A stretch of 21,308 nucleotides of DNA, taken from the IMG/VR virus record IMGVR_UViG_3300007747_000074, positions 1 to 21,308 of that record. One strand, given 5' to 3'. Within the stretch, counting starts at the first letter, position 1, and each line of letters begins with the position of its first letter. The notes under the pieces were generated by a model. The model made no database searches. It was given only the letters and a program-made list of their open reading frames with translations, and had not been told where the DNA came from. Of the stretch, positions 87 through 19,767 are shown piece after piece. Source of the stretch: a virus. Its lineage: Duplodnaviria; Heunggongvirae; Uroviricota; Caudoviricetes. The position numbers were made by a program, and so were the translations under genes.

Positions 87-701
87 TCACACCGTGTGAC
101 GTTCTGCCGCACACAGGAGGAATTTCTCAATATCAGGCTCAAGGGACGCCGAACGTATCCGGCTGATCAGCTCCTGAGTTTTCGTATCGTCGTACAGTTC
201 ACTGATATCCGGTTTACCGCCCGACGGCTCATAAACAGGCGTATCAATTTTCGTCGTATACGGCTCCTCCTCATTTCCTGTACCGGGCAAAACATCCGTC
301 AACAGTTCATCAATTTCTGTCGGGATGAAGCCTGTCAGGGAGACATCAAAATCAGCATTGATTAGGTCCGACAGCTCCATCCGCAACAGATCTTCATCCC
401 AGCCAGCATTCATCGGCAGGCGATTATCTGCCAGGCGGTACGCCTTTTTCTGCTCATCCGTCAGGCCAGACAGAACAATGACCGGAACAGAATCCATTTT
501 GAGCATTTCAGCCGCCATAACACGACCGTGACCCGCAATAATTTCGCCCTTTTCGTCAATCAGCACCGGATTAGTCCAGCCGAATTGCTTAATACTTTCT
601 ACCAGTTGTGCCACCTGCTCAGTACTGTGCGTCCTGGCGTTGTGCGCATACGGTGACAATTCTTGTAATGGGCGATAGACTATCTTTAATTTCTCGCTCA
701 T
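87..701 (-). CDS. ParB-like nuclease domain protein (positional equivalent of the Rac gene downstream of trkG)
   Basis: 204-aa ORF; N-terminal half has ParB/sulfiredoxin-like motifs (..VLIDEKGEIIAGHGRVMAA.. and ..YRLADNRL..); weak SD (aagg) upstream of ATG at 701; sits directly downstream of trkG on the same strand. Confidence 0.65.
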   Translation of the reverse strand: MSEKLKIVYRPLQELSPYAHNARTHSTEQVAQLVESIKQFGWTNPVLIDEKGEIIAGHGRVMAAEMLKMDSVPVIVLSGLTDEQKKAYRLADNRLPMNAGWDEDLLRMELSDLINADFDVSLTGFIPTEIDELLTDVLPGTGNEEEPYTTKIDTPVYEPSGGKPDISELYDDTKTQELISRIRSASLEPDIEKFLLCAAERHTV

Positions 702-838
702 ACAGCCTTGCTTTATGAATAAAACGCACCCCAGCAGCCAGTGCTACTGGGGACGGAGGTGTTGCTGGTAAAGTTAGGTATTGGATCAATGAGTGAGTCA
801 ACATAATATTAAACTCACAATTATAAATCAGCCATATA

Positions 839-2296
839 TTAGGAGCGCCAAAAAAAACCTGAAAACAATATAATAACAGGATAAATTTCAAGGCGACCAA
901 GAATCATAGCTATGCACATTAAACATTTTGCAATGTCATTAAGCACTCCGAATGACGATGCAGTAGCCCCAAAACCTAATCCCATATTATTAATACATGC
1001 AGCCACTGTTGCAAATGATGTAAGAAAATCATATCCCATACCATTTAACACCAGTATAAAAAACACCGTGAAGAGAGTATAAAGAAAAAAGAAACTCCAT
1101 ACAGACCTCATTACACGATCTGTAACTATCTTCCCTCCTACATTTACACTCAACAACGCTCTGGGATGAGAAAGCTGATTTATCTCGTGTTTGCTTTGTT
1201 TGAAAAGTATAAGAAATCGAAGTGACTTAATTCCACCACAAGTTGAACCTATACATCCCCCAAAGAAACTTGACAACAGCAAAAACACTATCGTGTGCGT
1301 GGGCCAACTTGCATAATCCTGCGTAGCTAAACCATTATCAGTGAGCATGGAGCTGGCAAGAAAAAACGAATGAATAAAACTTCCATGCAAGTCATACATA
1401 CCTATATGCCAGACCTGGAAAGAGGTAACAATGATCACCCCTAAGGCTATTAACAGAAAGAAACGAAGTTCAATATCTCTGATTAAAGGTTTTATCGTTT
1501 TCCTGCTAATAACAATATACCAAAGAGTGAAGTTGAAAGCCGATAGCAGGGAAAAAGAACCAGCCACCAGCTCAACCAAATAGTTATTAAAATATCCGAT
1601 ACTCTCGCTATGAGTTGAGAAACCACCAAGCGAAACTGTGGAAATCCCGTGACAAATAGCATCAAACAAAGGCATTCCTGCAAGTCTATAACAGACAATA
1701 CAAGCAATACCTAATAAAGAATAAGTTATCCACAGTGTCCGTGACGTATCGGCCAGGCGGGGAGTGAGTTTGTCATCCTTAAATGGCCCCGGCATTTCTG
1801 ACTGATAAAGCTTTGCACCACCAATACCCAATAATGGCAATACAGCAACCGCCAGAACAATAACTCCTAAACCACCTATAAAATTTAACTGTGACCGATA
1901 GTACAAATATGCCCGAGGTAATGAACTAACATCATCAATTACAGTTGCTCCTGTTGTTGTTATTCCAGAAACCCCTTCAAACAGAGCATCAATGAACGTT
2001 AAATTAAGTTCTGAGTCAATCCATAAAGGGAATGCACTAATAACAGAAAACAAAATCCAAAACATTACAATTATAATAAACCCATCACGGGTACGTAATT
2101 GAATGCCAGATTTCTTAGTTGTATACCACGCTCCGCCACCAATGCAAAAAAATATAACGAAAGTTATAAAGAAAACGAACAGGCTTTTTTCTTTATAAAA
2201 CAATGCTACAACCATTGGTGGCAACATTGAAAGACTATAGAGCCAAACCAGGAACCCACACATATGAGTAACAACTCTTACATGAGATGTATTCAT
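839..2296 (-). CDS. trkG: Trk-system K+ uptake membrane protein TrkG
   Basis: Long polytopic hydrophobic ORF; translation from Met7 of the 491-aa ORF (MNTSHVRVVTHMCGFLVWLYSL...) matches my recollection of TrkG (485 aa); markedly AT-rich relative to flanks; ORF first ATG is at 2314. Confidence 0.85.
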   Translation of the reverse strand: MNTSHVRVVTHMCGFLVWLYSLSMLPPMVVALFYKEKSLFVFFITFVIFFCIGGGAWYTTKKSGIQLRTRDGFIIIVMFWILFSVISAFPLWIDSELNLTFIDALFEGVSGITTTGATVIDDVSSLPRAYLYYRSQLNFIGGLGVIVLAVAVLPLLGIGGAKLYQSEMPGPFKDDKLTPRLADTSRTLWITYSLLGIACIVCYRLAGMPLFDAICHGISTVSLGGFSTHSESIGYFNNYLVELVAGSFSLLSAFNFTLWYIVISRKTIKPLIRDIELRFFLLIALGVIIVTSFQVWHIGMYDLHGSFIHSFFLASSMLTDNGLATQDYASWPTHTIVFLLLSSFFGGCIGSTCGGIKSLRFLILFKQSKHEINQLSHPRALLSVNVGGKIVTDRVMRSVWSFFFLYTLFTVFFILVLNGMGYDFLTSFATVAACINNMGLGFGATASSFGVLNDIAKCLMCIAMILGRLEIYPVIILFSGFFWRS

Positions 2297-2492
2297 ATCT
2301 AAATATTCTTTCAATTATAACCACCTTGCTGCAATATTATGATTATACTGTATAAAATTTAACTCCTCTTAGATCTTACTTCACTGTTCCTTATGAAACA
2401 ATCATCAAAATGAATCATATTGTAGTTAAGATTTTACTTTAAACACTGCTCGGTTATGTATTGCTGAGCACCTTCAAGTTGGGCCTGCATCA

Positions 2493-2795
2493 TTACCAGT
2501 CGTTCCCGGAGGGTGAAATAATCCCGTTCAGCGGTGTCTGCCAGTCGGGGGGAGGCTGCATTATCCACGCCGGAGGCGGTGGTGGCTTCACGCACTGACC
2601 ATCGAGCGCAGCAACATCACGCTGACGCATCTGCATGTCAGTAATTGCCGCGTTCGCCAGCTTCAGTTCTCTGGCATTTTTGTCGCGCTGTTCTTTGTAG
2701 GCGATGGCGTTATCACGGTAATGATTAACACCCCATGACAGGCAGACGACGATGCAGATAACCAGAGCGGAGATAATCGCGGTTACTCTGCTCAT
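2493..2795 (-). pseudogene. Rz/Rz1 spanin remnant: Rz N-terminus fused in frame to Rz1 C-terminus (rzpR-like)
   Basis: First ~65 aa ([33 protein letters not shown]) resemble lambda Rz, then the frame continues into the proline-rich Rz1-type C-terminus ([30 protein letters not shown]); Rz coiled-coil/C-terminal domain and Rz1 signal peptide/lipobox are absent; 4-nt overlap with the endolysin stop. Confidence 0.7.
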
Positions 2796-3268
2796 ACCTC
2801 AATCTCTCTGACCGTTCCGCCAGCTTCTTTGAATTTTGCAATCAGACTGTCAGCCTTATGCTCGAACTGACCATAACCAGCGCCCGGCAGTGAAGCCCAT
2901 ATATTGCTGCAACGGTCGATAGTCTGACGGATATCACCGCGATCAATCATCGGCAAAGCGCCACGCTCTTTAATCTGCTGCAGCGCTACAGCATCCTGAC
3001 TTTCTGGAGAAAAATCTTTCAGGCCAAGTTGCTTGCGGTAGGCATCCCACCAGCGTGAAAGAAGCTGGTAACGTCCAGCGGCTGTTGATTTGAGTTTCGG
3101 ATTTAGCGTGACAAGTTTGCGGGGGTGATCGGAGTAATCAGTGAACAGTTCGCCACCGACAATAACATCATAACCGTGATTTCTGGTTTTCTGCCGTCCG
3201 TTATCTGTTCCTTCTGACCATGCCACCATATCAAGGAAAGCTTTACGCTGGGAATTAAGTGTCTGCAT
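2792..3268 (-). CDS. Endolysin, lambda R-like lytic transglycosylase
   Basis: 158 aa, near-colinear with lambda R as I recall it (..[81 protein letters not shown]..), including the catalytic-glutamate SEGT context; immediately follows the holin. Confidence 0.85.
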
Positions 3269-3271
3269 TAA

Positions 3272-3622
3272 TTACTCCTTATGGGCACCGAACTTGTTAC
3301 CGATGACCCTCATTGCCGCACCACGAATAGCATCAACACCAATCAGCCCCACCCCACCACCAATGGCAACAGAAAGTGATTTAGGCCATCCGACATACTC
3401 AAGCGCGGATGCAAAGGTCAGCGTCAGAGCACCACAAAGCAGAATCTCAAGCGTTTTTCGTTTCCAGCCGCCGCCACCGCCAAAATAGGCAATGCGCAAA
3501 CCAGCCATAATAATTGACATAACCACTGCACCCAGCGGCGTATCTCCACGCCACCAACTTTGTAAGAGTTCCAGTAAGTCAGGCCAGGAATGAGGGGCAT
3601 TGTGCATTTTCATAAGCCTCAC
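3272..3622 (-). CDS. Holin (lambdoid S-like, possible dual start)
   Basis: 116-aa ORF with hydrophobic helices (AVVMSIIMAGLRIAYF; ILLCGALTLTFASALEYV; VAIGGGVGLIGV) and charged C-terminal tail; N-terminus MRLMKM offers closely spaced Met codons like the lambda S107/S105 dual-start motif; sits directly upstream of the endolysin. Confidence 0.65.
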   Translation of the reverse strand: MRLMKMHNAPHSWPDLLELLQSWWRGDTPLGAVVMSIIMAGLRIAYFGGGGGWKRKTLEILLCGALTLTFASALEYVGWPKSLSVAIGGGVGLIGVDAIRGAAMRVIGNKFGAHKE

Positions 3623-3710
3623 CTCCGAGAGTTCGGATGGTGCTAAGTGTAAGATTCAGGCTCTCAGGCTTGCTAACAAGAAGTCGAGGATGTTTCCAGA
3701 GCCTAACAAC

Positions 3711-3737
3711 GAAAAAGCCCCGGGACATGCCGGGGCC
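3711..3737 (-). terminator. Intrinsic terminator on the - strand, downstream of the moron gene
   Basis: GC stem gccccgg (3717-3723) / ccggggc (3730-3736) with 6-nt loop; on the - strand the stem is followed by TTTTTC (complement of 3711-3716); no T-run on the + strand side. Confidence 0.5.
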
Positions 3738-3830
3738 AGATGGAGTGCCAGATTAAGCTTCTGGCGGTATATACTCGTGTTTGATATCGTTAAATCGCCA
3801 AAAGTAACAATTCAAACAAAGAGGATTTTT

Positions 3831-3992
3831 ATGTCTGAAAAAAACAAACCACAAGGTGAAAATAAACCTCAGCAACCCGTGGCACCAAAACCAACTCCAA
3901 CACAAAGTACTACAGACTTTGCTACACGTCGTGTTTTTGTTGGAGATTCTGCCGACTCAGTCATTGAACATATAAAAAAACAGCCGAGATAA
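3831..3992 (+). CDS. Hypothetical small Pro/Gln-rich protein (53 aa)
   Basis: ATG at 3831 preceded by agagga SD with about 7-nt spacing; translation MSEKNKPQGENKPQQPVAPKPTPTQSTTDFATRRVFVGDSADSVIEHIKKQPR; its 3' end overlaps the convergent moron CDS by 32 nt; low-complexity composition makes coding status uncertain. Confidence 0.25.
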   Translation: MSEKNKPQGENKPQQPVAPKPTPTQSTTDFATRRVFVGDSADSVIEHIKKQPR

Positions 3993-4530
3993 ACATCGCC
4001 GCTACCGGAGCAAGGATGGTATACATCCTTGCTTTATCGAGACTCGTGCGGATTTTCTCATTTTCCAACAGTAACTCTCTTGCTGTATCACTCAAGTCAA
4101 CAAGGCGATACCTTCGTATAAGCGGCAATAACTTATCAGGTCCTAAATATCCTGCATCAGCGAATATTTTAAAGCTCGAGGGCTCCATATCCTTATATTT
4201 TTCATGATATAGATGATCAGGAGGGGCATTGATCAGGCCCCTAACCTTCACAGATAAATCAGTACATACCAAGTAAATGGCGCACCATGTCCATAGTAAT
4301 GTAAATGTGGTAATTCCGGCGGTGAGAAAATCGAAATTAGTTTTCTGTGTCAGCAATAAAAAAGATGAACCAATTCCAACAATCTGAATGTTCAGAAGTT
4401 TGTATCCATTCTCAACATTGGTTTTGTTAGAAAGATGAATCTCTCGTATCGTCTCTTCCCCTTGTTTTTCAAGATAATCGACGAGCTCATCATCTACTCC
4501 TAAAAAATAATCTTTAGGTAGTTCTCTCAT
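3961..4530 (-). CDS. Hypothetical membrane protein, AT-rich moron between Q/tR' and holin
   Basis: 189-aa ORF with strong SD (tggaggtgag) before ATG at 4530; acidic N-terminal ~40 aa, then hydrophobic segments (LLNIQIVGIGSSFLLL; FDFLTAGITTFTLLWTWCAIYLVCT; C-terminal MYTILAPVAAMFISAVFLYVQ); AT-rich versus neighbours; no family recognised. Confidence 0.6.
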   Translation of the reverse strand: MRELPKDYFLGVDDELVDYLEKQGEETIREIHLSNKTNVENGYKLLNIQIVGIGSSFLLLTQKTNFDFLTAGITTFTLLWTWCAIYLVCTDLSVKVRGLINAPPDHLYHEKYKDMEPSSFKIFADAGYLGPDKLLPLIRRYRLVDLSDTARELLLENEKIRTSLDKARMYTILAPVAAMFISAVFLYVQ

Positions 4531-4635
4531 CTCACCTCCACATCCTGTACTGAAAACAATTTTACCAGAATGTCTCGATTCTAGGTATTCCGCCAGGAAT
4601 CGCGCTCCAGAAATGAAACATCAGGTTCACCAGTA

Positions 4636-4668
4636 CCAGAAACAACAAAACCCGCTCAATGGCGGGTT
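4636..4668 (-). terminator. Intrinsic terminator on the - strand, candidate tR' (target of Q antitermination)
   Basis: Stem cccgc (4651-4655) / gcggg (4662-4666), extendable by A-T pairs, loop tcaatg; on the - strand followed by TTTTGTTGTTTCT; lies about 85-115 nt downstream of the Q-like stop, the expected geometry for pR'-tR'. Confidence 0.45.
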
Positions 4669-4751
4669 CTGGTAAAGTTCATGCGCTTGGTTCGCCTCGC
4701 GATACAGCTTTGCGAAGCATACCGGAATTGAAGCAGTTTATGCGTAAAAAA

Positions 4752-5207
4752 TCAAGCTATTTTTTGAGCAAATGATTCTCGCATGGGAATATATAGGGCA
4801 TACTCAGCAACAGCCAACCAATTAGCAATTCGCTTTTCGCATGTGCTAAAACACCACTCAGGATGTGCATCATTTAGCAATTCAGCCATTTTGCGCTTAG
4901 TCATCCCCCGTCCTTCATACCGTTGCCGGAGGACACTAATCAATCCAGGATGCTCTGCCAGCACCTCACTTATGACTCGATCAATACATAACGCCTCTGC
5001 ATCAGTACAATGCGCCAGCCAGCTCTTTTGCTTGCCGTTGATCATCTCTCGCAAAAACGCTTCCAGCTCAGCTTTCTCTATTCCCGCTTTTTTCATTCTG
5101 CGCAGGGCTTCATTGATGGCTGTTTTCGTCAATTTTTTGGATGCCAACAACTGATTGAACATATTTCCTGACCTGCCACCGCCAATATACGACCAGCGCC
5201 CCCACAT
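4752..5207 (-). CDS. Putative late-gene antiterminator (Q-like), start uncertain
   Basis: ORF 4752-5414 (220 aa) overlaps the upstream YbcO-like CDS by 124 nt in another frame, so an internal start (Met70 at 5207, or Met85 at 5162) is more plausible; Cys-containing motifs (HCTDAEALC, EWCFSTCEK); assignment is mainly positional (last gene before tR'/lysis cassette). Confidence 0.4.
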   Translation of the reverse strand: MWGRWSYIGGGRSGNMFNQLLASKKLTKTAINEALRRMKKAGIEKAELEAFLREMINGKQKSWLAHCTDAEALCIDRVISEVLAEHPGLISVLRQRYEGRGMTKRKMAELLNDAHPEWCFSTCEKRIANWLAVAEYALYIPMRESFAQKIA

Positions 5208-5290
5208 ACGCAGTTTGCCCTGAATCCAGACACTTTCCAGCGTGGCGAGACGAAGGTGTTCTCCGCTTTTTCCTGTATTCGTTGGGTAAA

Positions 5291-5581
5291 TCACAAATAT
5301 CCCTCCTTTCTCCAGATTTCTTGTGTGCGAAAAACACCTTCTGCATGCATCAGGCGTAATTCTTCTTTGGTGTAATCGCTGGTTTTTACCCGCCCGTCGA
5401 TTAGATCGTGGCATGAGCTACAGGCAATCGCCGCCTGCATATCGTGTGGTTTTGTCGCTGTTCCGCACGTTCCCGCCAGTCGGTAATGCGCCAGCACAGA
5501 CGTTTCCGGATCGTGATTGCAGTAGCCAGGAATTCTGACGGTGCACATCTGCCCCCGCGCCGCTTTACGTAAATCCACCAT
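5291..5581 (-). CDS. YbcO-like (DUF1364) putative Zn-binding nuclease, nin region
   Basis: 96 aa; MVDLRKAARGQMCTVRIPGYCNHDPETSVLAHYRLAG.CGT.TKP..ACSSCHD resembles DLP12 YbcO as I recall it (same length, conserved Cys/His); start overlaps the upstream gene stop (TAATG). Confidence 0.7.
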   Translation of the reverse strand: MVDLRKAARGQMCTVRIPGYCNHDPETSVLAHYRLAGTCGTATKPHDMQAAIACSSCHDLIDGRVKTSDYTKEELRLMHAEGVFRTQEIWRKEGYL

Positions 5582-6180
5582 TACGCAAACTCCAGCAGCT
5601 GCGCGGTCACATTTTCGACTTGTTCCGGAGAGGAAAATTTACGGAACAGAATCCAGTTCCACAGCACATTCAGAACAGATTTATAAACCTGCTGAAACTC
5701 GGTTTCGTCCATATTCGCAAAAGCGATGGATTTCGCCCGACGCCCATGGCTACCATCAGGATAAAGATGCTCGGTGTAAAATCCGGCCTGAATGGTTACC
5801 CACTCGCGGAAAGCCTCAAACGACTTTAGCAATGCCGTATCCCGGGTTCTGCGTGTCGCAACTGTATTCAGATATTGCTCTGCGGCTTCGCTCAGAGCTG
5901 GCGTATGTTCCCGGCCTACTGATTCACATAGGTAATCAACGAATCCTGAAACCAGCTTTCGTTCGCGAGGCGTGATCGCCCCACCGACCGGAGTCCAGTA
6001 ATCGAATCCCAGTTGCAGGAGTTTGAAAAAACGCTTGTGGAATGCGTAGTTACGCACACGCTTAAAGTCTGCGTGTATCCACTCGCCTATTTTGATTTGA
6101 TGCAAAAAATCGCAACTCTCCGGCGTCGCCGGGAGAAGTAGTCCAGAAGAGGTTTGTTTGACCAGTTGTATATGCGCCAT
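5581..6180 (-). CDS. Phage nin-region protein (DUF1367-like), function unknown
   Basis: 199-aa ORF translationally coupled to the YbcO-like gene; family name recalled from lambdoid prophage nin regions, not verified. Confidence 0.55.
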   Translation of the reverse strand: MAHIQLVKQTSSGLLLPATPESCDFLHQIKIGEWIHADFKRVRNYAFHKRFFKLLQLGFDYWTPVGGAITPRERKLVSGFVDYLCESVGREHTPALSEAAEQYLNTVATRRTRDTALLKSFEAFREWVTIQAGFYTEHLYPDGSHGRRAKSIAFANMDETEFQQVYKSVLNVLWNWILFRKFSSPEQVENVTAQLLEFA

Positions 6181-6458
6181 TTCTCAATCTCTCGATGGCG
6201 CAGTGCAGCAGATGCCAGTTGTTCAGGCTGACGAATAAAGTATAAATAAACTGGCTATGGTGTAAAGCTCCACATAACATGAACAAACACTACATATCAA
6301 ATAGCTGATACAAGGATAGAAATACAACACTTATTATTAAAAACGATTAGATAAATTACATTTTAATGTTATGAAAAAGTTCTTTTTTATCATAACATTT
6401 CAACAAAAGCATTACAGATGCACATCCCGTCATCATCAATTATTTAAGGTGGTTAAAC

Positions 6459-6545
6459 ATGGAAAATAACAACTATGCACATCTCGCTCCTTTTTTATCC
6501 GTAATCCTTTTCGCTGGCTGTTTTATATGGGCATTATTTTTATAA
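6459..6545 (+). CDS. Candidate small hydrophobic peptide (28 aa)
   Basis: ATG at 6459 preceded by strong SD aaggtgg (6446-6452); hand translation MENNNYAHLAPFLSVILFAGCFIWALFL, stop TAA 6543-6545; single predicted TM helix; in an AT-rich non-coding island; upstream hairpin (6365-6399). Confidence 0.35.
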   Translation: MENNNYAHLAPFLSVILFAGCFIWALFL

Positions 6546-6992
6546 AGTAGCCGCATGATTAGTTTCTGGAATCATGTTTCCCACTCAAATCATTAACATT
6601 TGATAAGATATATCTAAAAGGATGCCTTTACATTATTTGATGCGTATATGATTTATTTATATGCACAGTAAAGGCATCCTGGAAATAATCAAGATTAATG
6701 ATATATTGCTTATCTCATCCCCCACTGTCTTTCACCCGGAAAACATTTATCGTTAAAAATATATCATAAGTAATTAAATTGAAATTTCAGAACACAACTA
6801 ATGCACACAATAAGATTCAGTAACAGTAATCTATGCGGACTATATCGAGATTTTTTAGTTAAACTTTAATAAGTTATTCCTAACACACAGAATGCACAAA
6901 CTAAAAGTAAAACAAATAGTTATACGAAAAACAACCATATTGATTCTATCTTCTCCTCTAATCAACATATCAATTATGTGTTTCATAACAGC

Positions 6993-7028
6993 TTGACATA
7001 ACCCTCAAAAAGGTGCATTTATAATGCA
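6993..7028 (+). promoter_or_regulatory. Candidate promoter with NsrR-like inverted repeat overlapping the -10, upstream of the YeaR-like gene
   Basis: Perfect TTGACA (6993-6998) and TATAAT (7020-7025) but 21-bp spacer; inverted repeat TGCATT-tat-AATGCA (7014-7028) resembles the core of the NsrR site (ATGCATTT-N-AAATGCAT) as I recall it. Confidence 0.4.
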
Positions 7029-7047
7029 TGTTTTATGGGAGGTGGTT

Positions 7048-7389
7048 ATGACACACAAGAGAATTCCTAAAGACTGGGTAATCAAACGCTCAACTCCGTT
7101 CTTCACAAAAGAGAACGTACCTTCAGCGTTATTAACACATCATAATACAGCAGCAGGTGTTTTTGGACAGTTATGCGTGATGGAAGGTACTGTAACATAT
7201 TATGGTTTTGCTGATGAGAATGCTACTGAACCGGAGATAAAAGTAGTCATTAATGCTGGCGCTTTTGCAACAAGCCCACCACAATACTGGCACCGTGTTG
7301 AACTAAGCGATGATGCTCAGTTTAATATTAACTTTTGGGTAGCTCCAGACTTCTCAGGCGAAAAAGTCTATACCGCAAAAAAAGAATAG
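7048..7389 (+). CDS. YeaR-like DUF1971 protein (cargo gene)
   Basis: 113 aa from ATG 7048 (SD gggaggtgg at 7037-7045); RSTPFFTKENVPSALL...CVMEGTVTYYGFADENATEP...INAGAFATSPPQYWHRVE..DDAQFNINFWVAPDF parallels E. coli YeaR as I recall it; ORF first ATG is 7024. Confidence 0.7.
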   Translation: MTHKRIPKDWVIKRSTPFFTKENVPSALLTHHNTAAGVFGQLCVMEGTVTYYGFADENATEPEIKVVINAGAFATSPPQYWHRVELSDDAQFNINFWVAPDFSGEKVYTAKKE

Positions 7390-7471
7390 CCACGCTATAA
7401 ATATCTTATTAACTAGTCCCGGCGTGGTTCTTTCCCCGCTGGGTCTTTTACTCAGATTAGTAGTCTACGAA

Positions 7472-7579
7472 TCAGAGCCTCCGTCTGCCAGTTCGGATTC
7501 GTACCTCGCAGAGGTCTTTCCTCGTTACCAGTGCCGTCACTATGACGGTTAAACAGATGACGATCAGGGCGATTAACAT
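7472..7579 (-). pseudogene. hok-family toxin remnant (HokD/RelF-like), degenerate at both ends
   Basis: Hand translation from ATG (complement of 7577-7579): MLIALIVICLTVIVTALVTRKDLCEVRIRTG matches the HokD core, then diverges (GRRRL-stop); the +1 frame continues QTE... suggesting an indel; no HokD-type MKQQKA N-terminus (in-frame stop upstream). Confidence 0.5.
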
Positions 7580-8026
7580 CGTTAAACGTCTTGCAGGACG
7601 CGTAATGTTAACTGGGGCTTTTCTCTATCTACCTTTGGTGTTCATGCCCGAGGCAGATAGCCTCAAGCACCCACAGCAATTCTAACTATCCAATACATCA
7701 CTGCCAACACTTTAAACTCTTACCCTTTAAAACAAGAACAAAATTCAACCAATCAGCATTGGGCGTATACTCATATCCTAGAGAAAACAACTCTTTCTGT
7801 ACTATTTATATCCATATGATTTATAAGCATTTGCCACTTGCCATAGCCGCACAATGACAGTTTGCCATTTGATGTCAATAGATAAAAATGATCGTTTTCA
7901 ATGAGTTACATACTTGCAAGGCGTTGCACATCAGGCCCGATTACGTCAGTATCAAAAGATTACAGATGGTGCATTACTGCCACCTCGCCTTAATGTTCCA
8001 GAACTCTCCAACTTGAGGAATTTTCA

Positions 8027-8800
8027 ATGACATCCTTTCAATTATCTTTGATTTCTCGTGAAATTGACGGCGAAATAATACATTTACGTGCCAAAGATGG
8101 TTACATAAACGCCACATCAATGTGTAGAACTGCGGGCAAACTGCTCTCTGATTACACTAGACTCAAAACTACTCAAGAGTTTTTTGACGAATTATCACGC
8201 GATATGGGAATTCCCATATCGGAGTTAATTCAATCATTTAAAGGTGGAAGACCTGAAAACCAAGGGACATGGGTGCATCCTGACATCGCTATTAATCTAG
8301 CGCAGTGGCTATCGCCCAAATTTGCAGTCCAGGTTTCAAGATGGGTTCGTGAATGGATGTCAGGGGAAAGAACTACAGCAGAAATGCCTGTACATTTAAA
8401 ACGGTACATGGTTAATCGTAGTAGAATTCCTCACACGCACTTTTCTATTCTTAATGAACTGACATTCAACTTGGTTGCACCTCTTGAACAAGCAGGGTAC
8501 ACACTCCCAGAAAAAATGGTTCCTGACATTTCACAAGGAAGAGTATTTTCACAATGGTTAAGAGATAATAGAAACGTAGAACCCAAAACATTCCCTACCT
8601 ATGACCATGAATATCCCGATGGTCGCGTATACCCTGCAAGGCTGTACCCAAATGAATATTTAGCAGATTTCAAAGAACATTTTAACAATATTTGGTTGCC
8701 GCAATATGCCCCGAAATACTTCGCTGACCGGGACAAAAAGGCTCTCGCCTTGATTGAAAAAATTATGCTACCTAACCTCGATGGCAATGAACAGTTCTAA
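8027..8800 (+). CDS. KilA-N domain protein (antirepressor/Roi-like)
   Basis: 257-aa ORF, SD gagg about 9 nt upstream; N-terminal region (..INATSMCRTAGKLLSDYTRLKTTQEFFDEL..TWVHPDIAINLAQWLSPKFAVQVSRWV..) has the KilA-N/APSES-type signature; opposite strand to surrounding phage genes. Confidence 0.7.
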   Translation: MTSFQLSLISREIDGEIIHLRAKDGYINATSMCRTAGKLLSDYTRLKTTQEFFDELSRDMGIPISELIQSFKGGRPENQGTWVHPDIAINLAQWLSPKFAVQVSRWVREWMSGERTTAEMPVHLKRYMVNRSRIPHTHFSILNELTFNLVAPLEQAGYTLPEKMVPDISQGRVFSQWLRDNRNVEPKTFPTYDHEYPDGRVYPARLYPNEYLADFKEHFNNIWLPQYAPKYFADRDKKALALIEKIMLPNLDGNEQF

Positions 8801-8806
8801 ATGATT

Positions 8807-8832
8807 AGCCAGCCCCATAAGGGCTGGTTATT
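8807..8832 (+). terminator. Intrinsic terminator downstream of the KilA-N gene
   Basis: Stem ccagcc (8809-8814) / ggctgg (8821-8826), loop ccataa, followed by TTATTT (8827-8832). Confidence 0.4.
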
Positions 8833-8920
8833 TAGTATTATCAACCCCAGCGGCAAATCGAATACACCACCAGCGCCACCGCCATCGCAATTCCTACCGT
8901 TGTGAATGCTTCAGGCCAGG

Positions 8921-9424
8921 TCATCGTAAAACATCCTCCACGCTTATAAGTCCGCTTCGCTCCAGGTAGTCCATCACTTTATCCGGCAATTTGCAGCCCG
9001 GTTTCGGTTTCTTCAGTTGACTAACCAATTGTTTAACCAGCATTGTCAATTCGCGAACTTGTTTCCCGGGCTCCCCTTTGCCCTGAAGCAGGGCAGCGCG
9101 GCAAGCGTTCCATCCCTCAGCATATGTTTCAGTTACACCATCGAGATGGCATGTAAGCAAATCCATTTCTTCCGGCACTACGGGCGCTGGAAAAACGGCA
9201 TAGGGTGGCGTCCATTTTGGCGCTTTATCTCCAGCCGAACGCTGATACCAGTCATCCGGTTTGTATTCATAAAAATCACCAACTGGCTCTGCTTCCAGCG
9301 ATGCCAGAGCAATTTTGAATAATTCGCCCTCTACCCGTGCCATCCCTGAATTGGGGTGGCATTTCTCAATCGCTATTTTTAATTTAGCTTCTTCGATTAA
9401 TTGCTTTTTGGTTAATTCAGTCAT
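8921..9424 (-). CDS. Hypothetical phage protein (167 aa)
   Basis: Intact ORF on the same strand as the replication genes; no family recognised. Confidence 0.5.
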   Translation of the reverse strand: MTELTKKQLIEEAKLKIAIEKCHPNSGMARVEGELFKIALASLEAEPVGDFYEYKPDDWYQRSAGDKAPKWTPPYAVFPAPVVPEEMDLLTCHLDGVTETYAEGWNACRAALLQGKGEPGKQVRELTMLVKQLVSQLKKPKPGCKLPDKVMDYLERSGLISVEDVLR

Positions 9425-9585
9425 TTTTCATTACCGCCCTTTCGGGCCGCCTCCTAATATTTTGAGGGTGCAGCCCCCCCCTCCGGTTAAGGATTAAATT
9501 TTATTTACAGTGCTAAATTTAATTATTCAGATTTGGATTATGATTTCTCTTTCAGTTCACGCAGTTCCCTGATTGTTAATTTGGC

Positions 9586-10023
9586 TCACAACAGCACATC
9601 CTGAAAATTACCCTGATAGAACGCCAGTACACGCTGCATGACTTCGCTCTTCCGGCACTCGCGACAGATTATATTCAGACGCCTGTCATAGCGGCGTATT
9701 TCTCCGTCTGGTAATGACCAGATAAGGTCCGGATCAACTACAGCAGGTTTCTTCACCTTTGCCCTCGATAGTTTTTTGCGGGCGTTTTGCCAGTCTTTAC
9801 GCGCCTGCTCAGACGGGAATAATCCGTAGCCTGAATTGTAAACATCACCACTGGCGACCAGTTCTCTGGCGAGAGTGCTTATGTAATACCTTGATGCACC
9901 GGTTTTAGCCTCCAGAGCCCGTAACGTCTCGCGACCGCTCAGACGTACAAGTTCAACAACCTGCCCTTTAATTTTTTCCCGCTCTTCTGGTGTAAATACT
10001 TTTGCCATAGGTGCCTCCGGCAA
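9586..10023 (-). CDS. Hypothetical phage protein (145 aa)
   Basis: ORF abutting the upstream 224-aa gene (stop 10024-10026, start at 10023); possible HTH-like segment (GRETLRALEAKTGASRYYISTLAREL); no family recognised. Confidence 0.5.
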   Translation of the reverse strand: MPEAPMAKVFTPEEREKIKGQVVELVRLSGRETLRALEAKTGASRYYISTLARELVASGDVYNSGYGLFPSEQARKDWQNARKKLSRAKVKKPAVVDPDLIWSLPDGEIRRYDRRLNIICRECRKSEVMQRVLAFYQGNFQDVLL

Positions 10024-10698
10024 TCACTTTTCCGATGCAACATGGCGGGAAGAATCAGTAATCTGTCGTACAATATCCCTGTGCTTGTTCAGCTCCCGCA
10101 GCGCGGCGCAGACACGCTCCCACTTCTGGACATGATTTTTCGCCCGACGCAGTTCGCGGTTTGCCATATGCAGTGATGGTAAAACCAGGTCATCCGCTCG
10201 CGTTTCAGTAAACGATGGCAGCGACTGCACAATGTCCGCCACAGTTTCTGTTTTAATATCTTCCTGTGTTGCAGCCTCCTGTACTGGTAACGCAACACCT
10301 GCGGGCTGAGGAAAGGCCTTACCAGCAGTTTCCGCTACCGATGCTGCTTTCGGCTCTGCTGGTAAATTATCGCCCGGTATGCAGTAACGAAATTTACCGC
10401 CCTGATTTACGCGAAGCAGACGACCTTTGCTGATTGCCATTGCCAGCGTTGAAGCCACTTTGCGTGATGTGGTACCAAACAATGTAGCCAGCTCATCCGC
10501 CGTTTGTGGTCCACGTTGTTCAATCGTCGCAGTTAAATCGCTCTCTGAAATTTTCGCGACTGTTGCCGTGGTAGTTTCTTCCGGCAGTTCTGCCGGCGCT
10601 GGCTGTTCCTGCTGAACGTTGTTATCAGCCACACGCCAGGTGTACGCGCTTTTATCAACGAAACCAGCCTTTTTCAGTTCCCATAGTTCGTTCAGCAC
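10024..10698 (-). CDS. Hypothetical phage protein (224 aa) with possible winged-helix segment
   Basis: ORF downstream of the DnaC-like gene; segment [32 protein letters not shown] resembles a wHTH; acidic/Ala-Pro-rich low-complexity middle. Confidence 0.5.
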
Positions 10699-10784
10699 TT
10701 CTTCACGACTGATATCATGTGGCTTTTCCCATTGCTTTCAGTACGTCAAAAACAGTCTCCATTAAATTTTTCTCCCGGTAAAAA

Positions 10785-11531
10785 TTACTTCGCAATTCCT
10801 GGCTGGACGACATTCGGACGCCAGCTCTCCCAGTTGAAATTCACCCATCGCCCGCCGTTCATGGTCATGCGATCCATAATCCGCTCGCCAAGCAATGTTT
10901 TCATGGCCTCATAGTTCAGGTTTGTCAGCATCCCCACGCTGCGCATCGACGCTGTCCGGCGATCAACAATCTGGTGCAGTACCACCTGCTCGTTTTTCGT
11001 CTCGCGCTGAATGCCAATTTCATCAAGAACCAGCAGATCCACTTCGCACAGTTCCCGCAAAAATTTTTCGCCTGACTGCCCGTCGTCATAGCTGGCGTGC
11101 AGGGCACTCATAACATCAGCCACGGTAACCACAATCACTGTCTGACCGTCTTTCAGCAGGCGATTCCCGATAGCTGCCGCTAAGTGGTTCTTCCCGGTAC
11201 CAGGTTTTCCGCTGAACGCAAAATTTGTACACCCGGTCATCAGTTCATCAGCGATGGATTTCGCCTGACTCAACGCGTATCGCTGCCCTTCGTTCTGCAC
11301 CTGGTAATTCGAAAACGAGCATTTGCGGTGCAATGGCTGGATGCCAGAGTGATTCAGAATTTTTTCCACCCGCAACTGACGATTCTGACGGTTGATCTCC
11401 TCACAACGTTTCTGGCCTTCGGAAAGTTGCCACTCGCGCCACTCCGCTACCGTCTTGAATGGCGCGGTTACATGTGACGGGGCCAGTCTGCGGATACGTT
11501 CAAGAACGTCGCCTGTCGCAATATTTTTCAT
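10785..11531 (-). CDS. DnaC-like replicative helicase loader (YdaV-like AAA+ ATPase)
   Basis: 248 aa; Walker A FSGKPGTGKNHLA and Walker B-like LLVLDEIG; immediately downstream of the O-like initiator gene. Confidence 0.8.
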   Translation of the reverse strand: MKNIATGDVLERIRRLAPSHVTAPFKTVAEWREWQLSEGQKRCEEINRQNRQLRVEKILNHSGIQPLHRKCSFSNYQVQNEGQRYALSQAKSIADELMTGCTNFAFSGKPGTGKNHLAAAIGNRLLKDGQTVIVVTVADVMSALHASYDDGQSGEKFLRELCEVDLLVLDEIGIQRETKNEQVVLHQIVDRRTASMRSVGMLTNLNYEAMKTLLGERIMDRMTMNGGRWVNFNWESWRPNVVQPGIAK

Positions 11532-11537
11532 GGTCAG

Positions 11538-12326
11538 TTACCCCCTGAAGCCTGGCGGGATCGCACTATCCGGTAACGAGACGGTGTTAACCTGTCGGAG
11601 TAACGTCTCAGGTCGAACACCTTTCGGCGCGAACAAGCCCTGGTATTCGTTGGCGATGCTGTGTCGAATCACCTGCTCAGGTGAAAAACCCTGCTGGCGG
11701 AATTTTTCCAGCTCCCGTATCGCCCCGTTAGCGCCCTGCTCCGTTCGAATCGGTTTTCGCAATGCCTGCCTGAACTGAACCCACTCATGCCAGAGTGTTT
11801 CCGGCAACCAGTCAGGCAGCTCGATAGCCTCCGGTTCGAATTTTTTAGACGCTCGTTTTTGGCGAGGGGGATTTAGGGGGAGATAAGTATTTATATCTTC
11901 CTCTTTCTCTTCCTCTGGTAACGCTTTTTGATCCGTTTTTGTAACGCTGGCAGCGTTACCTTTTCGTTTCAGTTCTCGTATTTTTGTTACTCTCTCGTTT
12001 GTAACCGCCCGTTTTTTAGAGCTTTTCCCGTTATGGCGCTCAAAGTTAGGAAGCGACAACACACCATTAGTTTCGACCAGCCATCCAACCTGAATTAACG
12101 CATCAGCAAAACCAGCCATAAAAGTGATGCGATCTATTGCACTTTTTGTAACGCCGCGAGCGTTACACTCTGCGTTACCGTCTATCATTTGTTGATCCGC
12201 CCATGCCCAGAAGCGAATGACTTTCCCTAATGCGGCATCTGGATCAATATTCAGAATCTCAGCAAGCCTGAATATTTCCGGCTTATCCGGCGTAATAACT
12301 TCGAGCTTTATCCAGTTTGAAGCCAT
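11538..12326 (-). CDS. Replication initiator, O-like (YdaU/DUF1376-like)
   Basis: 262-aa ORF upstream of the DnaC-like gene; N-terminal coding region carries palindromes GTAACGC-N5-GCGTTAC, as expected for an origin embedded in an initiator gene. Confidence 0.6.
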   Translation of the reverse strand: MASNWIKLEVITPDKPEIFRLAEILNIDPDAALGKVIRFWAWADQQMIDGNAECNARGVTKSAIDRITFMAGFADALIQVGWLVETNGVLSLPNFERHNGKSSKKRAVTNERVTKIRELKRKGNAASVTKTDQKALPEEEKEEDINTYLPLNPPRQKRASKKFEPEAIELPDWLPETLWHEWVQFRQALRKPIRTEQGANGAIRELEKFRQQGFSPEQVIRHSIANEYQGLFAPKGVRPETLLRQVNTVSLPDSAIPPGFRG

Positions 12327-12358
12327 TTGTTTTCACCTTGTAACGCTCGCAGCGTTAC
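11918..12358. repeat. Three 19-bp palindromes GTAACGC-N5-GCGTTAC plus half-sites (candidate ori or operator sites)
   Basis: Palindromes at 11941-11959 (gtaacgctggcagcgttac), 12148-12166 (gtaacgccgcgagcgttac), 12340-12358 (gtaacgctcgcagcgttac); half-sites gtaacgc at 11918-11924 and gcgttac at 12172-12178; two are preceded by a T-run. Confidence 0.6.
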
Positions 12359-12403
12359 ATTTAACTGATACCGAACAAAACAGTTCGGTACGATTAATTT
12401 CAA

Positions 12404-12826
12404 TCAATGCACTACGACAGAATCGCTAGGAGAACCGCCGCCGCTGAAATGTGCTTTACGGTAAACGGCCTGGACTGCATCATCATGCGCATCAATTGCC
12501 GTACTCAGTGCATCCTGTGCCGCCAGTAATGCACGGCGTTCCAGGGTATCGAAGATGCAGAGTCGGTGACGCAGCTCGCGAGGAAGAATTGCCAGAACCG
12601 CAGGGATCAGTTTCTGAATTTTTTCCCTTTGCGCATTCGTTTCACCTTTCAACCAACGATGATAGATATTCTGCTGATTGTTCCAGTCCTTGCCTGGTAC
12701 CAGGGGCAATTCGCCGCCCCCCTGGCGCAGATATTCTTCAGTAATTGCGTTAGCGACCCACGCCTGCCCTTTTTCGGCTGCCAGGGCTAACAACACTGAT
12801 TCGATGTGCTCATGCTTGATTTTCAT
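12404..12826 (-). CDS. YdaT-like protein (140 aa)
   Basis: ORF overlapping the upstream Cro-like gene stop by 4 nt (ATGA); same size and position as Rac YdaT; function not evident from sequence. Confidence 0.55.
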   Translation of the reverse strand: MKIKHEHIESVLLALAAEKGQAWVANAITEEYLRQGGGELPLVPGKDWNNQQNIYHRWLKGETNAQREKIQKLIPAVLAILPRELRHRLCIFDTLERRALLAAQDALSTAIDAHDDAVQAVYRKAHFSGGGSPSDSVVVH

Positions 12827-13077
12827 GAATCAACTCCCATCAGCTTTTTCGTAGTAGTTTTATTTCTGCCAATAGTTAAAATTGCATCGGCAGAAAATAA
12901 TCCGTTTGATGCATGAGCGATTTTTTCAGCGTAATTTGTTTCGCCGGTATATTCTGTGCGAGGCAATTTTCCGTTATCCATCCATTTGTAGATTGCTCTT
13001 TGGCTGACACCACAAACGTCGGCCACAACAGAAACGCGAACAGTTTTGATTACATCTTCAAGTGTTTTCTGGTTCAT
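12823..13077 (-). CDS. Cro-like HTH regulator (YdaS/DicC position)
   Basis: Start taken at internal Met (MNQKTLEDVIK...) with SD gaggg 5 nt upstream; HTH-like VADVCGVSQRAIYKWM; divergent from the repressor gene; ORF first ATG is at 13149. Confidence 0.55.
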   Translation of the reverse strand: MNQKTLEDVIKTVRVSVVADVCGVSQRAIYKWMDNGKLPRTEYTGETNYAEKIAHASNGLFSADAILTIGRNKTTTKKLMGVDS

Positions 13078-19578: not shown

Positions 19579-19767
19579 ATGTATAAAATTACCGCCACTA
19601 TTGAAAAGGAAGGTGGCACTCCTACTAACTGGACAAGATATTCAAAATCTAAACTAACGAAATCAGAATGCGAAAAAATGCTCTCAGGTAAAAAAGAAGC
19701 AGGCGTTTCCAGAGAGCAGAAAGTAAAACTGATAAATTTTAATTGCGAGAAACTTCAGTCCTCGTGA
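19579..19767 (+). CDS. ydaC: YdaC-like small protein
   Basis: MYKITATIEKEGGTPTNWTRYSKSKLTKSECEKMLSGKKEAGVSREQKVKLINFNCEKLQSS; alternative upstream starts at 19567 and 19507 exist in the ORF; position between ralR and xis. Confidence 0.5.
   Translation: MYKITATIEKEGGTPTNWTRYSKSKLTKSECEKMLSGKKEAGVSREQKVKLINFNCEKLQSS

Follow-up and report, generated by a model that had tools for sequence, protein, structure and literature searches.

A KilA-N gene within the replication region of a Rac-type prophage

What is the role of a KilA-N gene that lies, on the opposite strand, inside the replication region of a lambdoid prophage? The question is raised by the open reading frame at 8027–8800 (+) of a Caudoviricetes sequence of 21,308 nucleotides (IMG/VR record IMGVR_UViG_3300007747_000074), the whole of which is here called the window. 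P1 KilA and many Bro and Ant proteins carry a KilA-N domain, and a first-pass annotation had considered the gene an independently regulated accessory function, possibly an antirepressor or a host-toxic factor. We find that the gene and its domain are real, and we propose that the product is better read as a member of the BstA family of abortive-infection proteins.

The gene encodes a two-domain, BstA-like protein of 257 aa (WP_000200358.1; RefSeq ‘KilA-N domain-containing protein’), in which Pfam KilA-N matches residues 14–112, encoded at 8066–8362 (+), with E = 4.3e-27 and 94.5 bits against a cut-off of 23.8. A Shine-Dalgarno sequence, GAGGAA, can be read at 8015–8020 (+), 7–12 nt 5′ of the ATG, and this start is consistent with the N-termini of 29 homologues. 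The gene itself has a GC content of 40.6%, and the AlphaFold2 model of its product has a mean pLDDT of 90.4. Comparison of the window allele with that of Escherichia phage PhiR5_2 gave a dN/dS of about 0.03 (pN 0.09; pS 0.74, at which synonymous sites are saturated), from which it follows that the gene is under strong purifying selection and functional. Near-identical copies are present in 117 of 5426 complete E. coli genomes (~2%), with the same left flank in all 117. In RefSeq and GenBank the protein is labeled only ‘KilA-N domain-containing protein’ or ‘DNA-binding protein’, and NCBIfam gives no match to it. A literature search for the accession WP_000200358.1 and for experimental tests of the short (~250 aa), canonical-KilA-N subfamily found none.

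The window is a Rac-type lambdoid prophage with recE/recT, kilR, sieB, ydaS/ydaT-like genes, ydaV, a Q-like DUF1133 gene, lysis genes and trkG, and the gene region is matched at 100% identity in Escherichia phages vB_EcoS-613R10, 666R9 and 673R7 as well as in prophages, for example the one in E. coli 7/2. In the annotations, the gene has the replication genes on one side and the Q-like gene on the other, in line with the earlier placement in the replication/nin block, and it is on the strand opposite the early-right operon that runs from replication to Q. The range 87–13077 had been said to hold no other + strand gene, which is incorrect: a DUF1971 gene, TehB N-terminal-like and annotated in RefSeq, is located at 7048–7389 (+) (phrog_34268, E = 8e-81). 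The match of its product to NCBIfam TehB (E = 1e-12) is far below the cut-off, and a hairpin with a UCUUUU tract at 7417–7444 (−18.9 kcal/mol, z = −3.1) appears to be its own terminator. A functional link between the two genes was rejected, since the DUF1971 gene is absent beside PhiR5_2-type alleles and the hairpin with U-tract at 7417–7444 separates the genes. Between the DUF1367 and DUF1971 genes, 737 bp at 6287–7023 are essentially ORF-free and, with 29% GC, form by far the most AT-rich part of the region; this stretch could be a promoter or an H-NS-bound region.

A degenerate hok/mok/sok module at 7434–7690 (−), similar to hokW/sokW of phage 933W, belongs to the context and lies outside the system. 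Relative to phage 613R10 and E. coli 7/2, a 93-bp deletion at 7581 has removed the hok start codon and the sok promoter, together with the mok overlap and the 5′ half of sok, and in undeleted relatives the C-terminus of Hok is frameshifted anyway (41 aa versus 51). The Rfam sok match at this module reaches 52 bits, less than the gathering score of 59; at the gathering threshold Rfam found only RalA in the whole window, and in E-value mode only the sub-threshold sok near the gene. RalA, at 19585–19763 (−), is the sRNA antitoxin of the Rac RalR/RalA type I pair (RF02694; 225 bits, gathering score 170). On the far side of the gene, an unannotated hydrophobic ORF of 26 aa (MTWPEAFTTVGIAMAVALVVYSICRWG) at 8845–8925 (−) has a start that overlaps the stop of 8921–9424 (−) in ATGA, and it may be a small membrane protein ending the replication-region operon. 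The stretch 8845–8900 is kept in about 1300 of the 5426 complete E. coli genomes, far more than the BstA-like gene.

The C-terminal domain and membership of the BstA family

BstA is an abortive-infection system made up of a single protein, which prophages encode and express constitutively (Owen et al., 2021, Cell Host Microbe; PMC8585504). The C-terminal half of the window protein, for which Bro-C, KilA-C or ANT had been the candidates, matches none of these in a Pfam scan at E ≤ 1, which besides KilA-N returned only a non-significant RHH_3; a BstA-like C-terminal domain is found instead at residues ~119–251, encoded at 8381–8779 (+), by PADLOC BstA, PF26567, BLASTP and hhalign. The PADLOC BstA model PDLC02356 matches residues 119–238 (E = 3.2e-21). 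The full-length protein falls in PHROG 6287, ‘BstA abortive infection system, replication inhibitor’ (E = 2.7e-89; residues 1–254 on profile positions 6–303), as does the C-terminal half alone (E = 4.6e-55). In precomputed domain assignments of a large protein database, relatives of the window protein carry PF26567 and PF04383 and relatives of BstA-BTP1 carry PF26567 alone, the UniRef name for PF26567-only proteins being ‘BstA-like C-terminal domain-containing protein’.

Direct comparison with BstA-BTP1 by BLASTP aligned residues 125–251 with 164–302 at 32% identity (E = 3e-16), within the C-terminal domain only, and hhalign of 30-sequence alignments of both subfamilies gave a probability of 97.8% over the same domain region. 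Invariant residues coincide in the two subfamily alignments at R126, N130, P135, F139, S140, E144 and D167, and further at S169, G171, W177, H194, Y207, P208 and F215 (window numbering). Comparison with PDB structures yielded no structural relative of the C-terminal domain. Judged by these matches, the product is very probably a member of the BstA protein family, and its demonstrable homology to experimentally tested BstA proteins is limited to the C-terminal domain. Since PHROGs already places the protein with BstA, a family recognized since 2021, the finding is a re-annotation.

The N-terminal domains of the two subfamilies do differ. That of the window protein has the KilA-N/APSES fold and is a canonical Pfam KilA-N domain, whereas that of BTP1 BstA is ‘KilA-N (-like)’ and detectable by HHpred only (Owen et al., 2021; PMC8585504); the two could be aligned neither pairwise by BLASTP nor, between the subfamilies, by profile–profile comparison. 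With the eukaryotic APSES transcription factors Mbp1, Swi4 and Bqt4, the window protein has only the DNA-binding fold in common. Table S1 of Owen et al. (PMC8585504) holds no E. coli entry of 771 bp, and three of its entries from other taxa, of 747–792 bp, could belong to the subfamily of the window protein.

In its overall design the gene resembles the bstA genes of BTP1, BstA-Kp and BstA-Ec, each being a single gene with a KilA-N-type N-terminal domain and a BstA-like C-terminal domain (PF26567). It shares with BTP1 BstA a prophage location, a Rho-independent terminator of its own, assignment to PHROG 6287 and a PADLOC BstA match, and its closest alleles, like BTP1 bstA, are found immediately downstream of cI. 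Unlike BTP1 BstA, the product has 257 rather than 307 aa, with 32% identity confined to the C-terminal domain, and the gene lies in the nin/hok region of a Rac-type prophage, where it converges with the replication operon; the repressor of this prophage is not of the S24 type. The features that make it a variant of the known BstA are thus the canonical KilA-N domain, the shorter protein and the relocated genomic position.

A mobile cassette outside the cI-downstream slot

The bstA gene of BTP1 has its own Rho-independent terminator, and bstA genes are usually located just downstream of cI, a position that is frequent and not universal (PMC8585504). The window gene does not occupy this slot; its place is in the nin/hok region, on the opposite strand and some 4.4 kb away from the gene for the repressor. 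The slot is occupied by the PhiR5_2 allele, which is 31 bp after cI and shows 86% protein identity and 77% DNA identity (coding region only), and by most ~85% alleles of other lambdoid phages. About 55 loci with such an allele were found in IMG/VR, nearly all having a same-strand gene 31–354 bp away as their nearest upstream gene; 31 of the 37 distinct proteins encoded upstream are HTH + Peptidase_S24 repressors of several immunity types, indicating that the subfamily normally occupies exactly the BstA slot. The 15 IMG/VR loci with the window allele always have the upstream flank of the window, with downstream sequence related to that of the window.

The limits of the transferred unit are given by E. 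coli A30, in which the flanks of the window (7613–7954 and 8845–8924) surround an unrelated insert of 438 bp, so that the cargo is delimited as about 7955–8844 (+), with a left junction that is fuzzy by about 20 bp either way. This cassette of 890 bp comprises a 72-bp leader, the gene and its terminator. The window allele has thus been relocated, as the 890-bp cassette, into the nin/hok region of a Rac-like prophage, and because a different cargo occupies the same slot in A30, the site downstream of hok acts as a hotspot of cargo exchange. The alternative cargo of A30 (L005, 3255–3693) contains an unannotated ORF of 59 aa at 3465–3644 (+) with two CxxC pairs, MFLYRNSFMEKTVNKKICSKCGEPCEILFRRFYRDESGKRVYPVKAKAFPIPKCTKCES, whose sequence suggests a zinc ribbon.

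Transcription signals

That the gene has its own intrinsic terminator, as previously noted, was borne out by a terminator scan and RNA folding. The terminator at 8806–8842 (+) has a 10-bp stem with six G-C pairs and a 5-nt loop, followed by TTATTTAGTATT; its hairpin (8806–8830) begins six bases past the stop codon, with −18.7 kcal/mol and z = −4.0 against shuffles. Read on the − strand, the hairpin has a poor U-tract and z = −2.0, and it therefore terminates mainly the + strand gene. At this position the PhiR5_2 allele carries a different hairpin terminator, not homologous to that of the window.

The AT-richness noted earlier for the DNA upstream of the gene was likewise confirmed (37% GC at 7700–7954 versus 44.9% in the whole window; 37–38% over the 330 bp upstream of the gene). 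The promoter of the gene is inferred to lie somewhere in about 7640–8026, because + strand hairpins with U-tracts are located further upstream (7417–7444; the 3′ remnant of sok). The best sigma-70 candidate, a weak one at 7862–7889 (+), consists of TTGCCA, 16 nt and AAAAAT (9/12 matches), and its −35 hexamer is not kept in E. coli A30. A promoter scan of the upstream region found fewer promoter-like sites than in shuffles and no convincing promoter. An own promoter is nevertheless plausible. The broader proposal, an independently transcribed accessory gene with a KilA-N domain, is retained: its own terminator, low GC and cassette boundaries mark a moron-like unit, although the promoter candidate is weak and such sites are not enriched.

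The direct repeats reported at 7829–7872 do exist as strings but are no better than chance. TTTGCCAYTTG occurs twice at 7830–7871 (+), as TTTGCCACTTG at 7830 and, 31 bp further on, as TTTGCCATTTG at 7861, and a pair of equal quality arises in 13% of dinucleotide shuffles of the region (p about 0.13). The motif is not enriched within the window, and its second copy is not kept in E. coli A30, which was aligned as the sole related prophage whose upstream region has diverged; the repeats are probably fortuitous. An exact 10-mer, TTTTCAATGA, is also repeated, at 7895–7904 and 8021–8030, 126 bp apart, with the second copy spanning the start codon, and TTTCAAT recurs 16 bp into the ORF. This 10-mer is the only repeat touching the region where a self-immunity element would be expected by analogy with BTP1; since an equally long repeat is found in 16% of shuffles (p about 0.16), it too is probably chance. 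Small upstream ORFs at 7888–8016 and 7914–8030, the latter annotated in ON470590, have no family match, are not conserved as proteins in A30 and were rejected as genes.

Search for a self-immunity element

In BTP1 the resident prophage is protected by aba, a 63-bp DNA element that covers bstA positions −29 to +34, has direct repeats of CCCGCC at its ends and acts as DNA and in an allele-specific manner (PMC8585504). An aba-like terminal-repeat element is not recognizable in the window, in which it differs from BTP1: between −40 and +45 around the start, no direct repeat of at least 5 nt spaced 25–75 bp was found, a result to be read in the light of aba being allele-specific and a single one having been mapped. 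Across 78 subfamily loci, the longest such repeat was no different from that in in-gene controls or shuffles. Upstream of the ATG the window allele is not related to the ~85% allele; over +1 to +34 the two are about 65% identical.

Relatives beyond Enterobacterales

Full-length relatives with 50–62% identity are found in many phyla, mostly as stand-alone genes. Proteins of ~250 aa with KilA-N and the BstA C-terminal domain that are more than 50% identical were observed in Gamma-, Beta- and Alphaproteobacteria, Verrucomicrobiota, Bacteroidota, Spirochaetia, Nitrospirota, Armatimonadota and CPR (Gracilibacteria, Peribacteria) MAGs (loci L007–L086). Such conservation across phyla is unusually high for a mobile defense gene, and it could point to a different, conserved target, which would run counter to the BstA-like defense reading.

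The genomic neighborhoods in bacteria of many phyla were also compared. Known defense proteins were matched by roughly 8 of 72 immediate upstream and 12 of 75 immediate downstream neighbors, including HamC, KwaA, dGTPase, dCTPase, AbiTii, type II restriction enzymes, MzaA and several PADLOC candidates; other immediate neighbors are IS1595 transposases, integrases and resolvases. Defense genes make up ~1% or less of a typical genome. The neighbor rate fits residence in defense islands, the yardstick being this general figure and not a matched background. In Stenotrophomonas the homolog has a fixed site adjoining aceK.

A probable function and its alternatives

Taken together with the family assignment, these observations lead us to favor, with moderate confidence and by analogy with BstA, the view that the 8027–8800 product acts as a single-protein abortive-infection defense carried by the prophage. 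BstA of BTP1 co-localizes with the replicating DNA of the infecting phage and prevents its replication, with lysis occurring without progeny (PMC8585504). To judge from the homologous BstA proteins of BTP1, Klebsiella and E. coli (PMC8585504), the window protein would be made in the lysogen, its promoter lying within the AT-rich leader. Upon infection by an unrelated phage, it would gather at the replicating phage DNA via its DNA-binding domain and block phage DNA replication; the infected cell would still lyse, releasing no progeny, and the lysogen population would be protected. The resident prophage, once induced, would probably escape through a cognate, cis-acting, aba-like DNA at the 5′ end of the gene or close to it. 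More speculatively, since the pR-side transcript must cross the gene in antisense on its way to the Q-like gene at 4752–5414 (−), this convergence may lower expression of the gene in lytic growth.

The window protein may instead be a defense protein whose mechanism is unlike that of BstA-BTP1. The polar residues E144, D167, H194 and D198 of the C-terminal domain would then form the active site of an enzyme acting, for example, on DNA or nucleotides, KilA-N would sense a different trigger, and aba-type immunity would not operate. The N-terminal domains that cannot be aligned between the subfamilies, the many invariant polar residues of the C-terminal domain, a domain that also lacks a structural relative that would fix its function, the failure to find an aba-like repeat and the many homologs in non-prophage, defense-island-like contexts are all consistent with such a protein. 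We nevertheless regard it as unlikely, because the part in common with BstA, and so the probable effector, is the C-terminal domain, which is of the same family, because the closest alleles lie exactly in the BstA slot behind cI, and because no catalytic fold was detected. In a further reading, which we consider quite unlikely, the short proteins with canonical KilA-N and BstA C-terminal domains would form a distinct defense subfamily. The identity of more than 50% that links E. coli with Bacteroidota, Spirochaetia and CPR MAGs would then be due to a conserved host or replisome feature being recognized rather than a phage protein, and in this Rac-like prophage self-immunity would be owed to relocation and convergent lytic transcription and not to aba.

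That the protein is a DNA-binding regulator serving the prophage itself, through transcriptional control or maintenance of lysogeny, is decidedly improbable. KilA-N/APSES domains are DNA-binding domains of transcription factors, and the N-terminal domain alone matches phrog_129, ‘transcriptional regulator’. Against this, the stand-alone homologs beside IS elements and defense genes outside prophages, in many phyla, would be unexpected of a prophage-specific regulator, and the gene is swapped as cargo among unrelated immunity regions and lacking in the A30 prophage, which is similar in other respects; it is therefore dispensable for the phage.

Least probable is the original suggestion of an antirepressor or host-killing protein of the KilA/Bro/Ant type, of which the accessory, moron-like nature and the KilA-N domain were retained, with proximity to the hok remnant and the kilR of the Rac family also in its favor, but whose functional part is disfavored by the BstA-like C-terminus in place of KilA-C, Bro-C or ANT, by the closest alleles lying directly behind cI on the same strand, the slot of a lysogen-expressed defense gene and, given that Owen et al. 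presume a gene there to use the promoter of the repressor (PMC8585504), a self-defeating one for an antirepressor, and by the finding that overexpressed BstA-BTP1 is not toxic in the absence of phage (PMC8585504). P1 KilA and the Bro/Roi/Ant-type proteins have an N-terminal KilA-N domain in common with the window protein and differ from it in C-terminal domain and genomic niche. From the non-toxicity of BstA-BTP1 it also follows that the relevant phenotype is resistance to phage challenge and not toxicity.

As lysogen-expressed Abi cargo behind cI, the ~85% alleles, and these only, resemble lambda RexAB and other defense cargo of the cI-N slot; the proteins and mechanism of RexAB are unrelated, and the window copy is outside that slot.

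Implications for Rac-type prophages and the BstA family

The re-annotation as a BstA-like protein adds a probable abortive-infection defense to the Rac-type prophages, which is relevant to the prediction of host range in phage therapy. It also shows that bstA-like cassettes are mobile, being exchanged between the slot behind cI and that in the nin/hok region. With its compact proteins and a confidently modeled structure, the subfamily may offer a way into the role of the BstA C-terminal domain and into the basis of self-immunity.
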